Below, in pieces: positions 1 through 4,785 of a stretch of DNA of 64,000 nucleotides. Each line of letters starts with the position of its first letter. Within the stretch, counting starts at the first letter, position 1. Position numbers and translations under genes: made by a program. The stretch covers positions 80,602,001 to 80,666,000 of the forward strand of contig NC_058368.1 of assembly GCF_018350175.1 (NCBI RefSeq), given 5' to 3'. Source of the DNA: Felis catus (lineage: Eukaryota). The notes below the pieces were generated by a model, which was not told the DNA's origin, searched no databases, and saw nothing but the letters and a program-made list of their open reading frames with translations.

Positions 1-779
1 ATACGGTTCAGATTTTTCCCTCGAAGTGCTTGAGGGTTTTGTGCTCTGTGTACCATGAGGGGTTTGCACTTAAAGTCACCCTTGGCATTGGCACATAATA
101 GCAAGGTTGCACGGTCTTTGAATGATTTAAAGCCAGGAGCCTTGGAGGCCATTTGCATTATATAGGTTCGTCTGCCAACATTCTTGTAAAACAAGCCTGT
201 CTCATCAGCGTTGAAAACCTGCTCTTCCATATAACCCTTTTCATGTATAATGCTTAGCAGATACTTTTTAAATTCTTCTGCAGCTTCCTCATCTGCAGGA
301 CCTGCCTTCTGTCCAAGTTTAACGTTTTTCATGTGGTATCGCCTTTTGAAACGTGCAAGCCAGCCTGCACTAGCTGAGAAGGGTTTAACCTTTTCCTGAC
401 CCTGGGTAACATGACTGTAAATTTCCTTGGCTTTCAGCCTCACAACAACACTGTCTACCATGCTCTTTTTATTGGTTGTCATCTCCTGAATCCACAAATT
501 TAGCTGCTTTTCCATCTTTTCCATAGCCGCATCACGCACTATAGATGTTACTTTAGCACTTTCTGGAGCAGCCTCACGTACAGATCGGCGAATATCGTCT
601 TCCTTTTTCTGGATGTACCGTATTGTTGATTCATTAACGTTGAACTCACGGCCAACAGCACTGTAACTCAGGCCTGAACGAAGCTTATCTAACACACGTA
701 TTTTCTCTGTAAGGCACATCACAGCCTTCTTGCGCTTAGGAACATTAGACAGTGCTTTAGCGCTACGCTTGGGGGCCAT
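1..779 (-). CDS. Uninterrupted pogo/Tigger-family transposase ORF (TIGD/CENP-B-like), 5' part only; runs off the window start
   Basis: Manual translation of the reverse strand from ATG 779-777: MAPKRSAKALSNVPKRKKAVMCLTEKIRVLDKLRSGLSYSAVGREFNVNESTIRYIQKKEDDIRRSVREAAPESAKVTSIVRDAAMEKMEKQLNLWIQEMTTNKKSMVDSVVVRLKAKEIYSHVTQGQEKVKPFSASAGWLARFKRRYHMKNVKLGQKAGPADEEAAEEFKKYLLSIIHEKGYMEEQVFNADETGLFYKNVGRRTYIMQMASKAPGFKSFKDRATLLLCANAKGDFKCKPLMVHRAQNPQALRGKNLNR... (259 codons, no stop, no frameshift). Contains a psq-type HTH, a CENP-B-type HTH (FSASAGWLARFKRR), the first catalytic Asp motif VFNADETG (D192, nt 206-204) and KDRxTLLLxANAxGDFK. An in-frame TAA (782-780) lies directly before the ATG. Family identity is secure; expression is unproven. 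Confidence 0.8.
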   Translation of the reverse strand, partial: MAPKRSAKALSNVPKRKKAVMCLTEKIRVLDKLRSGLSYSAVGREFNVNESTIRYIQKKEDDIRRSVREAAPESAKVTSIVRDAAMEKMEKQLNLWIQEMTTNKKSMVDSVVVRLKAKEIYSHVTQGQEKVKPFSASAGWLARFKRRYHMKNVKLGQKAGPADEEAAEEFKKYLLSIIHEKGYMEEQVFNADETGLFYKNVGRRTYIMQMASKAPGFKSFKDRATLLLCANAKGDFKCKPLMVHRAQNPQALRGKNLNR

Positions 780-1038
780 TTAAAATAGCAAAGTCACCAA
801 GAAGAACCACAAAAATGTGAAAAACGTGATGCCAGTAGAGAGTGAAAAGGACATCTGCTTACCTTAGGAGCTGAAGCAAGAGGGCAGAGCACAGTCTTGT
901 TCAAGTTTAGCTGGGAATGTGTGTCATGTCTGTGAATGACTGGGAAAGTGCCACCAGTATTGATTTTGGGGTTACAAACAAATTTTATCAAGTAGGTGAA
1001 TTTGCACAGAATCCGTGAATGAATGAGGACGTGGACTG
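1..1038 (-). mobile_element. Tigger (TcMar-Tigger/pogo) DNA transposon, left end; 5' non-coding part resembles MER82-type elements
   Basis: Minus strand reads TA|CAGTCCACGTCCTCATTCATTCACGGATTCTGTGCAAATTCACCTACTTGATAAAATTTGTTTGTAACCCCAAAATCAATAC...: a TA target site at 1040-1039, then a CAGT-starting TIR-like end, leading into the transposase ORF. Subfamily name is from memory. Confidence 0.85.
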
Positions 1039-2497
1039 TATTTGTATGGGTCTCTTGCCAAAACAAAAAAACCCAACCAAACAAAAACAGTGATCAGTAA
1101 AAATGGTTTAGTATAAAAATGTCTTACTTTAGCATACTGTTTTGTTGCAGGAAGTGGAATGGAAAGACGCTGAAGGAGAACAGAATGTAAAATGTCTGAC
1201 TTTTAAACAAGGAATTTGTTCATTAATTTTTTAAGATGGAGAATGGCTATTTCTACTGTTTTTTGAGCTACTGGACATAATTTTAAAGCATATTTAACAG
1301 TTTCAAAATGTCCTCAAGACATCAGAAATTAAAGCTTTGCAACTACTTAAAATTATTAAGCATGCATATTTGGTGCATACTTTTTCAAAATTCTTTTATG
1401 GAGAGGAGCAAATGGACCAGGAAGCAGCTTTGGTTTATCTGTTCACAGAAAAAAAAAAAAAATCCGTTCAATTTGGAGGAAATATGTTGGCAATTTCTTC
1501 TAAGGATTTTTAAATTGTAGGAAAAAAAGGGTCTGATTTTTGCCCTCTTTGTACTTCTTAACACCCTTGTTTTTCGTTTTGATTTATAACTTTAAAAGAC
1601 CCAAGCTTGAAATGAAACCAGAGTATTCCTGTAAGGCCTGATGGAATGCTGTGATATCCCCATACAAGGACAAAAGTGCCCTGAATGTCCTTAGATGCTA
1701 GAGTTCTGGATGATGCTGTAGTGTAGCTCTCAAAACTTAGTCTTCTTATGTGTCAGAACGACAAAGGGCCCTTCTCATGTCTCCGGCTTCTCTCTTGATT
1801 GCTCTCGGTTTTCTTGACTTTTCTGGTCCGGGAGGCTGTCAGTAACTCCTCACAGGTGTGGCAGGTGGCCCTCAAAGTTCTCTCTTGGCAGCCTGCACCG
1901 GGCCCTCCTCGACGCTCTCCGCCCGTGGTAGAGGCCGCAGACAACTGCTTCCTAGCTGACTTGCTCACTGATATGTAACTGGCTATTCTGGTTAATCATT
2001 AATGAAGCACGTGGTGTGTATTCGGGAAGGAAAACATTGCACTTCAATCCCAACATGCATAATTTATGTTGCCAATTATTCTAAATCCTCGTAATAGAAT
2101 ACCGGTTCCACTCTCCCAAGCCGGTGGCTGGGAAGAACTGAAGATAGGGTTCCCTCCAGCCCCTTCAGGGTTGCTCACCGCTGAGGCCCTGCTCTCCGGG
2201 ACCCTCTGGGCAGGGCGGGCTGTGTCCGCTGGGGCCAGGCGAGGATGAGGGCCAAGTGCCGGGAGGAGTCTGCGCGTGGGCTGGGTCAGGTGGGCCGTGT
2301 CAGAGGATGAGAACCACGCGCTGGGTGGAGGAGGCCGCGCGTGGGACCAGGTGCGCAGGTGCGCCCCGTGTCGGAGGACAAGGACCTGGTGCTCGGCGCG
2401 GGGGAGGATGGAGGAGGAGGAGGTGGAGCCCGAGACTGAGACCGCGGGTGGGGCCAGGTGCGCCGCGTCCGAGGACAAGGACAAAGTGCTGTGGGGG

Positions 2498-2527
2498 GGA
2501 GGAGGAGGAGGAGGAGGAGGAGGAGGA
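2498..2527 (+). repeat. (GGA)10 microsatellite within the CpG island
   Basis: Direct reading: a G run followed by ten GGA units. Confidence 0.95.
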
Positions 2528-2654
2528 GGCGGCCGTGGGTGGGGCCAAGTGCAGGGGACAGGCGGCCGCGCGTGGGGCCAGGTGCACCGCGTCTGCCGGC
2601 GCGAGGGCGAGGCCGGAAAAGGCGGTGCGCTGGCCGGCCGGGGCGCGGTCTGAA

Positions 2655-2668
2655 TACGTCACTTCCGG
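2655..2668. promoter_or_regulatory. Overlapping CRE/ETS composite motif
   Basis: TACGTCACTTCCGG (reverse complement CCGGAAGTGACGTA), close to the composite CCGGAAGTGACGTCA motif bound by GABPA and CREB1. Confidence 0.7.
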
Positions 2669-2669
2669 T

Positions 2670-2733
2670 GGCGGCCCACTTCCTGGAGAGGGCTGGGGCC
2701 TGAGATTGGTGCAGCCCAGAGGAAGGAAAGACG
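2670..2733 (+). other. ARHGEF7: Candidate non-coding alternative first exon of ARHGEF7 (short isoform); start approximate
   Basis: Strong donor ACG|GTGAGC (GT at 2734-2735) just downstream of the ETS/CRE motif and 170 nt upstream of the exon 2 acceptor; no ATG in the segment. Confidence 0.55.
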
Positions 2734-2903
2734 GTGAGCGGCGGCGGCGGCCCAGCGGGCGGGCGTCAGGGGCGGCCGGGGTCCCTCCGGGCCGCCGGGG
2801 CCGCCCGTCCGCGTCCTCTCGCCCGGGGCCGCTTGCCGGCGCCGCCCTGGGTCGCGTCCGCGGCCTCCGCGCCGCCGCTCAGCGCCTGTGCTCTGTGTTG
2901 CAG

Positions 2904-2990
2904 GTTTACCCGGAGCCCCGGAGCGAGAGCGAGTGCCTGAGCAATATCCGCGAGTTCCTGCGAGGCTGCGGGGCCTCCCTGCGGCTGGAG
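2904..2990 (+). CDS. ARHGEF7: ARHGEF7 exon 2 (CH domain): VYPEPRSESECLSNIREFLRGCGASLRLE
   Basis: Acceptor ctctgtgttgcag|GTT, donor GAG|gtgagc; 87 nt, phase 0/0; peptide matches the beta-PIX calponin-homology region. Confidence 0.97.
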
Positions 2991-4785
2991 GTGAGCGGGC
3001 GCGGGGCGCCAGGAGGGGGGCGGGCCGGGCTGGCGGCGCCCGGAGGCCCGGGGGAAGGGAGCGAGCGCGGTCGCGGGGCGGGGAGGGGCCGCTGCGTGCA
3101 GCCCCGAACTGGGCTGTCGTCGCTCTGAAGAAGAGCCTCAGGAGCTCGTGGGTAGGTGTCACGCTTTTGCGAGAACCGTTCCTAAGGGGTGCGGTCGATT
3201 CCTTGTTCCCTGCCTTAGCCTGTGCTTTTAGGGGTTCCCCGGGGGACCCGCATTCAGGGCTGGGTCAGCCCCTTAGAATTTCTAGCAGGTAAGCGGGCAA
3301 AACCGGGCACAAATGAAAGGACCCCGAGCCCTCCCAGCCTCACGCCTTTATCTGCTTTTTTTTCCTACCGCCAGAAGGTAGGCGGTGTTTAGGTTGGAGG
3401 TAAACCTACGTCTTGGGGAGTGTACCCGGCGGGGTGTGTCTGCTGTGTAAGGTTTTGTCACTGTTCTAAATACGGTCTTTCAGCGGCAGTTCTCTGGAAA
3501 CCTCCTTTACAGCTCATTTTACCGTATGATTTTTCCTAACCTTGGGGTAGTGCTTTTGATCCGGAAACCTAGACATTGTTTCATTTGGGAACTCCAGCTC
3601 GAAGTGGTTGTGGTCACGTCTGTGCTTCCATCGTTTCCTCCTGCTGCTTTACCACCTGTTTCCTTATCAGAGCTGAGCTGAGTTTGAGCAGGCTGGCGGA
3701 GAAGAGTATATGAAGGCATCTCCGGTGGAACCTGTTGTGTAAGAGGATTCCATAAAGTTTTCCCCTCCTAGCACAGTCTTAGTGTGGGTTTCTTGGGAGA
3801 AATCTAGAAGTCCAGTCGGTGAGGGCAAGTTTCATGGCAACTCATTTGTTGAAGTTACACTGGCATCAAGAAACCAAAATCCTGTCCTGCGTGATTGTGA
3901 ACATTAAGGTATCTCTTTTGTAGTATTTGAGGTCTGCGAGGAAGTCCCTTACAGGTACCTGAAAGGCTTAGTAGAGATCCCGGAGACCCTAGGGCTGTTT
4001 AGGAGGGGGCAACATTTCAGAAAGGCTTTGTCATCTTGTTCTGGACTCCCCTATTGGGCTGTGAGAATATGTGTTCCTGGTAGCAACGTTTGCTTTTCCT
4101 TGACCTTTGTTGTGAGACTATTTTCATCAAACTGAGTTTTGGTTGTGATAGTAAATTTGAAATTCAGTTTGCACATTAAATTTACAACCTCACAACTTCA
4201 GTGTTCAGTGTAGGACTCTGTAAGAAAGTATTAAAGTGGAGTCTTAAAAACCCTTTACCTTTCGCTCTCCAGAGGCTGCTGTTGAAATTTCATATCCTGT
4301 CTATCTTTATAACGAAGAGTTTAATGATGCTGTAGGAGAGGTCACTAACTTATCCCAAGCATCTAGAACAGTTCTTGGAGTTATAGTAGGCCTTCAATAA
4401 ATCTGCAGTTGATAGCAAATAATTGATTTTTTTGTTTATAAGGAAACTTGTGGCTAGTTTTTAAAGAGTTTTAAATTTTAAATTCGGTAAATAAATTTGA
4501 GAGGCATGTTTTGTTAGCATACTTTCAGTTTCCGTAGTAAGTCACACTTCAAACTCCTAATTGCCTAGGATAATGAAAATAACAAAACACATCAAAACTC
4601 TCACATTGTTGAGTCACTCTGGTTTTTGTTTTGTTGTAGGAAGTTACCCTGAAAAATGAGTTCTGTATGGTGTGAATCCTACTTGGGCTTCCAGACTTGT
4701 TCTGATCTGTGGTGTGAAGGTACTGGCCTATTCCCTGAAAGGTGGCCTTGCGTGCGGAGCACATGCAGCAGTTTCCCAGGGTTTT

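Follow-up and report, generated by a model that had tools for sequence, protein, structure and literature searches.

A Tigger-derived gene antisense within ARHGEF7 of the cat, probably domesticated by the time of the boreoeutherian ancestor and predicted to be non-catalytic

Introduction

At one end of the stretch of cat DNA analysed here (the window, 64,000 nucleotides; G000:C1:80602001-80666000) lies an uninterrupted reading frame for a transposase of the pogo/Tigger type, on the strand opposite to that of ARHGEF7. The question raised by this open reading frame (ORF), here named gene A, is whether it is an old transposon copy that happens to be intact or a host gene that selection has preserved. 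A preliminary description made from the window alone had proposed the latter. The analysis reported here makes it likely that gene A is an ancient eutherian Tigger copy that was in place, antisense in ARHGEF7, by the time of the boreoeutherian ancestor, that its ORF has been kept as a single-exon domesticated gene, and that its product is now a DNA-binding protein predicted to lack catalysis.

Results

Gene A is a complete pogo-type transposase ORF

The preliminary description had read 259 open codons from an ATG at position 779 to the edge of the window. The same frame was seen again: it starts with the ATG at 779-777 on the minus strand, has an in-frame TAA immediately 5′ of that codon, and occupies positions 779..3, with 259 sense codons up to the edge. 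A stop or frameshift just past the window had been named as the sign that would betray a decayed copy; neither was found when the sequence was extended into the genome. The frame runs on to a TGA, completing a protein of 592 amino acids (aa), and its 3′ end lies about 1 kb (about 999 bases) before the window start.

All three pogo-type domain matches in the protein exceed the curated Pfam cut-offs, placing gene A in the pogo/Tigger superfamily. Two of these matches are the helix-turn-helix (HTH) domains that had been claimed from the letters alone, and the third is the DDE_1 catalytic core (Table 1). Pfam detected no CENP-B dimerisation domain in the protein. Residues 14-147 match the CENP-B structure 1HLV by sequence (E 1e-4). 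An AlphaFold2 model of the protein, built from an alignment of 46 sequences (mean pLDDT 78), was compared with known structures by Foldseek, and the matches were the Mos1 mariner transposase (E 3.7e-4), the transposase domain of SETMAR (TM score 0.62-0.65 on the target), the Sleeping Beauty catalytic domain and the DNA-binding domain of CENP-B (1HLV). As modelled, the core would have an RNase-H-like transposase fold related to that of Tc1/mariner.

Gene A has stayed open and under purifying selection

The cat genome was searched for the transposon family at the DNA level, with 3 kb around the gene A ORF as the query, and more than 1000 candidate copies were obtained. Most are internal-deletion derivatives, in which a segment from about 260 base pairs (bp) 5′ of the ATG to about codon 224 is followed by the last 100-250 bp. 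The closest other copy, here named paralogue B and placed by the search at G000:C39:49823734-49825485, is an intact ORF on another contig that is 82-85% identical to gene A in DNA and 78% identical in protein. For the other copies listed, DNA identity to gene A is mostly 66-82%. A whole-genome protein search found only A and B intact in the family. Every other family match has stops, and the single long decayed copy has 16. Near-identical dispersed copies, which the preliminary description had named as the mark of a young family, are missing, the best other copy being paralogue B and the rest mostly broken. A young family is thereby excluded as the source of gene A.

In 28 decayed copies, stops occupy 128 of 5185 aligned codons, and every copy has at least one stop or frameshifting deletion within codons 1-224. 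At this sibling rate about 14.6 stops would be expected in 592 codons and the probability of none is about 4.5e-7 (indels ignored), so the openness of gene A is far above chance.

The 28 decayed copies, aligned with gene A as the anchor, gave a CpG-corrected majority consensus of the family; paralogue B was kept out of it, and two duplicate loci were dropped. The consensus extends over only the 5′ 930 bp and the 3′ 110 bp, and non-synonymous (dN) and synonymous (dS) divergence from it was measured over codons 1-224. For the decayed copies the mean dN was 0.193 and the mean dS 0.293, with a ratio of 0.68 (range 0.41-1.11). The corresponding values were 0.062 and 0.226 for gene A (ratio 0.27; Fisher p 3e-6) and 0.039 and 0.253 for paralogue B (ratio 0.16; Fisher p 3e-10). 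Judged by dS, A and B are as old as the dead copies, with 3-5 times fewer amino-acid changes accepted. When A and B were compared with each other over 582 codons, dN was 0.116, dS 0.446 and the ratio 0.26 (p 2.5e-23).

Relative to the consensus, the coding part of gene A differs at 60 of 670 positions, where the decayed copies differ at 19% on average and at no fewer than 15%. The 5′ non-coding part of its element differs at 37 of 249 positions (decayed-copy mean 17%) and the 3′ non-coding part at 17 of 103 (decayed-copy mean 22%), both close to the divergence of dead copies. Differences in gene A fall on codon positions 1, 2 and 3 in the proportions 23/16/32, and are distributed nearly evenly over the three positions in the decayed copies. 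The coding sequence of gene A has been under purifying selection after immobilisation of the element. The proposal that this copy was kept by selection is upheld both by its dN/dS ratio, set against that of the decayed copies, and by full-length relatives in several orders.

Gene A is a full-length insertion with decayed ends

The element that carries gene A is about 2.6 kb long, with a TA adjoining each end, and its 3′ end lies at about G000:C1:80600452, where the match to family copies ceases. The two ends no longer pair well; local alignment of end against end, for gene A and five decayed copies, gave matches of only 7-23 bases. The limits of the element were therefore set from the match limits of the family copies, the terminal repeats being too decayed to pair. 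Gene A is a full-length insertion whose non-coding ends are still attached but decayed.

The element of paralogue B reaches only 49 bp 5′ of the ATG, the rest of its 5′ end being missing, and is about 130 bp short at the other end. An origin of A and B by segmental duplication was considered and ruled out: the two loci are homologous only within the element, with limits 49 bp ahead of the ATG and about 420 bp past the stop, and outside it they share only short dispersed repeats. Of the differences from the consensus, 8 are common to A and B, 49 are private to A and 41 are private to B. Since so few differences are shared and the flanks are not homologous, A and B are separate insertions that split near the time at which the family was active. 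The independent domestication that had been suggested for gene A is supported, with the qualification that a conserved paralogue makes it one of a pair.

Relatives of gene A are found in several mammalian orders

A search of 5.8 billion proteins for relatives of gene A returned 119 matches, to which 78 shorter ones were added. They include predicted proteins to which NCBI has given the name 'tigger transposable element-derived protein 1(-like)', and the suspicion that automated pipelines might already list the locus was justified: NCBI predicts a 'tigger transposable element-derived protein 1-like'. The nearest relatives form a clade with gene A (clade A). Its member from Prionailurus is 592 aa long and identical to gene A at 587 of 592 residues. 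Clade-A proteins of 586-592 aa occur in Prionailurus, Leptonychotes, Phoca, three species of Ursus and Nyctereutes, and others are 612 aa long in three species of Equus and 558 aa long in Cynocephalus.

In a maximum-likelihood tree of 22 proteins, clade A and the clade of paralogue B (clade B) were both recovered at 100/99 support. Within both, a colugo group, joined by the marmot in clade B, is separated from a laurasiatherian group, which in clade A consists of carnivores, equids and camel. An armadillo protein falls just outside the two clades (support 84/83). Two genes passed down vertically from the boreoeutherian ancestor or earlier would be expected to give such a pattern, and the proteins suggest a phylogeny that follows the species, as that of a domesticated gene should. 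Relatives of paralogue B are conserved in tiger, horse, hippo, otter, colugo, marmot and armadillo.

Some clade-A predictions are short. Those of dog (P0017, P0149) and camel (P0020, P0154, P0155) measure 300-425 aa, whereas the raccoon dog keeps 586 aa. The dog protein carries many changes of the Arg-to-His or Arg-to-Cys type, as in recent decay. Truncation in dog and camel with an intact protein in the raccoon dog points to lineage-specific loss.

The third catalytic aspartate is missing from gene A and the rest of clade A

The columns of the catalytic triad were judged in an alignment with 45 distant homologues, in which they hold aspartate in 42, 43 and 37 of the 45 sequences. The residue that had been picked out within the window as the first catalytic aspartate (D192, in NADETG) occupies the first of these columns. 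The remaining two, which had to be sought beyond the window, proved to be D307 and S341 (codon AGT), with a spacing of 33, so that serine replaces the third aspartate. Gene A thus lacks the complete DDD triad that marks an active autonomous Tigger; near-identical copies with matching terminal inverted repeats, another such mark, are lacking as well.

The first two aspartates are kept in all 20 clade-A proteins and the third in none, the residue there being serine in 14 and asparagine in 6. The triad reads DD33S in carnivores, equids and camels, and DD33N in colugos and some unnamed sequences. Paralogue B has the full DDD, which clade B keeps in 5 of 8 species. The third-position codon is AGT in A and GAT in B, which fits a path from aspartate through asparagine to serine, and asparagine is found at this position in 5 of the 45 distant homologues too. 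Enzymes of the Tc1/mariner group need the triad for catalysis.

Conservation along the protein was expressed as the mean identity of the cat protein to the 7 other full-length clade-A proteins. It is 92% in the CENP-B_N HTH, 91.5% in HTH_Tnp_Tc5, 90% in the DDE core and 90% in a C-terminal helical region (aa 501-560), and falls to 77% in an acidic stretch and 69% in the tail. The helical region ends in a PIP box, QTRLKEFF (aa 553-560), that fits the strict pattern Qxx[ILM]xxF[FY]. The same pattern was counted in 14 of 16 members of clade A, in 3 of 8 members of clade B and in 23 of the 45 distant homologues; elsewhere in these proteins it turns up once in 32,817 residues. According to a review (PMC5371812), the transposase of Drosophila pogo binds PCNA, its PIP box is conserved in Tigger, and the fission-yeast homologues of CENP-B act at long terminal repeats and stalled replication forks.

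These observations bear on a further possibility, that gene A is a selected host gene with some other mode of action: a nuclease- or recombinase-like activity, retained or modified, or the original repression of its own family, in place of sequence-specific attachment to chromatin or to PCNA. Such an activity would account for a DDE core conserved within clade A much as the HTH domains are, and for first and second aspartates kept without exception; the full triad in most of clade B and the asparagine found at the third position in distant homologues are also consistent with it. The loss of the third aspartate throughout clade A argues against it, given that catalysis in Tc1/mariner enzymes depends on the triad, and a repressor would have no present target because the parent family is long dead. 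An explanation of this kind is unlikely, if the most durable of the alternatives.

Discussion

How gene A may have arisen and what it may do

In the explanation favoured here, that of a domesticated DNA-binding protein, a full-length Tigger of the pogo superfamily would have entered the ARHGEF7 transcription unit, in antisense orientation, no later than the boreoeutherian ancestor, and its transposase ORF would since have been retained as a single-exon host gene. To judge by its sequence, the protein would no longer cut or paste DNA. It would instead bind DNA sequence-specifically through its two HTH domains, probably at relics of the terminal repeats of its own family, and, if CENP-B and its homologues in fission yeast are a guide, might attach to PCNA at replication forks. 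Transcription may, at a guess, start in a CpG island 1.3-2.6 kb upstream.

Several points weigh against this explanation. The consensus test spans codons 1-224, the alignment on which it rests is anchored on gene A and may flatter it, and the 'neutral' ratio returned by the method is 0.68 and not 1. The comparison between species was made on proteins, and orthology rests on the tree together with shared derived residues. That the product of gene A binds DNA and PCNA and no longer catalyses is inferred from sequence. A search for sequencing runs that contain this stretch listed 20, with none on record as RNA and 14 taken for RNA by guess, and so speaks neither for nor against transcription. The clade-A predictions are truncated in dog (340-425 aa) and camel (300-384 aa), so that gene A would be dispensable in some lineages. 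No primate, mouse or rat names were found among the 119 and 78 matches, many of which are unnamed; this suggests that gene A was lost in primates, mouse and rat.

That gene A is a fortuitously intact, non-functional relic evolving neutrally is very improbable. An intron-like location and decayed transposon ends that are still attached are what a relic would show. However, a neutral copy would be expected to carry stops, as all 28 siblings carry stops or frameshifting deletions within 224 codons, and the dN of gene A is one third of that of the neutral copies at a similar dS. With intact relatives in several orders, this explanation is close to refuted.

It is just as hard to credit that the sequence is conserved as non-coding DNA, either as an intronic enhancer of ARHGEF7 or as an antisense RNA. 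Gene A does lie 1.3 kb from a CpG island and adjoins an ARHGEF7 exon. The constraint, however, is codon-specific, in that the codon positions differ in gene A and hardly at all in the decayed copies; dN is far below dS, and conservation does not extend to the non-coding flanks of the element. That gene A is an autonomous Tigger still moving, or mobile until recently, can be dismissed almost entirely. The full length, the presence of both ends, the TA flanks and the intact ORF might speak for it; against it, the next best copy is only 82-85% identical in DNA, the third catalytic aspartate is lost, the terminal repeats have diverged as neutral sequence does, and the dS of 0.23 equals that of dead copies roughly 100 million years old (an age inferred from divergence).

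A more ambitious extension of the domesticated-gene explanation takes in paralogue B, and is put forward tentatively, as a possibility and not as the expected outcome. A and B would be two unrecognised domesticated Tigger genes of boreoeutherian age (B possibly eutherian). A would be a catalytically dead PIP-box factor acting on relics of its own family at replication forks, as a mammalian counterpart of the fission-yeast CENP-B homologues, and B, with its DDD triad, might still cut DNA. Being missing from human and mouse, both would have been passed over by the TIGD nomenclature and by the published survey of such genes.

Comparison with known domesticated transposases

Gene A is best regarded as one of a pair of further members of the known class of domesticated pogo/Tigger genes, predicted by a pipeline and uncharacterised in the literature searched. 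The survey of Gao et al. 2020 (PMC7386202) describes 12 pogo-derived vertebrate genes, and excludes TIGD1 and 'TIGD1-like' as multi-copy, low in identity, narrowly distributed and pseudogene-like, with data not shown. Five clade-A accessions and the term TIGD1 are absent from eight text supplementary files of that survey. The terms TIGD1, Tigger1, horse and carnivor do not occur in Mateo and Gonzalez 2014 (PMC4231638). No description of gene A was found in the literature covered, subscription journals lying outside that coverage. CENPBD2P proved a wrong lead to the identity of gene A, the part of PMC11929002 available holding no link to gene A or ARHGEF7.

The evidence on A and B runs counter to the survey's dismissal of 'TIGD1-like': each is single-copy, has experienced purifying selection from about the boreoeutherian ancestor onwards and is conserved in several orders. 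If confirmed, A and B would add two members to the list of domesticated transposases and offer a natural contrast between a gene that lost its triad (A) and one that keeps it (B). They would also indicate that gene catalogues centred on human and mouse miss domesticated transposases which those lineages have lost.

The preliminary description had not recognised gene A as any of TIGD1-7. In the cat genome, the ORF taken to be of the TIGD1 type is 30% identical to it, and identity to the other intact pogo-type ORFs does not go beyond 35%. Gene A resembles TIGD1 in its CENP-B_N, HTH_Tnp_Tc5 and DDE_1 domains, its length (about 590 aa), its single coding exon and its C-terminal PIP-like motif. It belongs to a different Tigger family, even though NCBI names it after TIGD1. 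An identity with TIGD1 is ruled out by the 30% figure for the intact Tigger1-type ORF.

Like JRK, JRKL, TIGD2, TIGD5 and TIGD7, gene A is a domesticated Tigger transposase that retains both HTH domains and DDE_1. Several of that group have asparagine at the third triad position (PMC7386202, Table 1), and the Ka/Ks of 0.06-0.21 reported for the group in the same source is comparable with the 0.27 of gene A. The difference lies in sequence, as none of the other intact pogo-type ORFs of the cat genome exceeds the 35% identity already mentioned.

CENPBD1 is also Tigger-derived, mammal-restricted, domesticated and patchily distributed, and has likewise lost the third aspartate. It is described (PMC7386202) as a protein of about 540 aa with a DD32G triad, continuous in Laurasiatheria and absent from most primates and rodents. 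Gene A is a different gene, since it encodes 592 aa with DD33S and the cat genome holds a separate DD32G ORF, 33% identical to it. That ORF, of 541 aa (G000:C39:61613650-61615242, minus strand; near the end of the contig), fits the published description of CENPBD1.

CENP-B, Abp1, Cbh1 and Cbh2 share with gene A a pogo origin, the loss of catalysis, which in gene A is predicted, and paired HTH domains through which specific DNA is bound, as gene A would also do. Gene A differs from CENP-B in that no dimerisation domain was detected in it and that nothing links it to centromeres. Drosophila pogo has a C-terminal PIP box as gene A does, but is an active transposase with the full DDD, whereas gene A is immobile and without the third aspartate.

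Position in ARHGEF7 and a neighbouring CpG island

The preliminary description had placed the ORF antisense within ARHGEF7, and this placement holds. Because the plus strand at window positions 2904-2990 encodes part of the CH domain of ARHGEF7, identical at every residue to PDB 2L3G (Table 1), the gene A ORF is upstream of an internal coding exon of that gene, on the opposite strand. Across the 20 kb upstream, 119 plus-strand ORFs of 45 aa or more gave no match to any Pfam family; the preceding CH-domain exon is therefore further away or was missed.

Table 1. Coordinates of gene A, its domains and element, paralogue B and neighbouring features. Positions are those of the window unless a contig is given.
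Feature	Position	Strand	Basis
Complete gene A ORF, 592 codons	G000:C1:80601001-80602779	-	genome extension
First 259 of 592 codons of gene A, pogo/Tigger transposase ORF	1..779	-	ORF reading, genome extension, Pfam
CENP-B_N (psq-like) HTH, aa 15-66	582..737	-	Pfam PF04218, E 3.4e-8
HTH_Tnp_Tc5 (CENP-B-type), second DNA-binding domain, aa 87-153	321..521	-	Pfam PF03221, E 1e-12
Codon of D192, first catalytic Asp	204..206	-	alignment with homologues
Start of DDE_1 / RNase-H-like catalytic core (aa 221-404), running past the window	1..119	-	Pfam PF03184, E 3.5e-46 (full protein)
Codons of D307 and S341	outside the window	-	alignment with homologues
5′ non-coding part of gene A element with decayed 5′ terminal inverted repeat; end at about 1038, then TA	780..1038	-	match limits of family copies
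CpG island, 1.3-2.6 kb upstream of gene A ATG	2100..3400	.	GC 0.71, CpG observed/expected 0.82
ARHGEF7 coding exon, part of CH domain	2904..2990	+	29/29 residues identical to PDB 2L3G, E 1e-14
Paralogue B, intact 593-aa ORF, same Tigger family	G000:C39:49823734-49825515	+	genome search

The CH-domain exon lies inside the CpG island. A CpG island around this exon suggests an internal or alternative promoter of ARHGEF7, which could also drive the antisense gene A. For gene A the island is at best a guessed candidate for a shared or bidirectional promoter region, and the position of gene A, antisense in ARHGEF7 and beside the island, raises the testable question of shared regulation.

Other intact pogo-type ORFs in the cat genome

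About ten more intact pogo-type ORFs, of 460-700 aa and 29-35% identical to gene A, were seen in the cat genome; these are presumably the known JRK, JRKL, TIGD, CENPB and POGK genes. An intact ORF of 593 aa on another contig (G000:C17:170726812-170728593, plus strand; 170726836-170728533 in the protein search), with D, D and G at the triad columns, is taken from its N-terminus to be of the Tigger1/TIGD1 type. It looks like a TIGD1-type gene, and its conservation may deserve attention, as the survey does not count TIGD1 among stationary domesticated genes.

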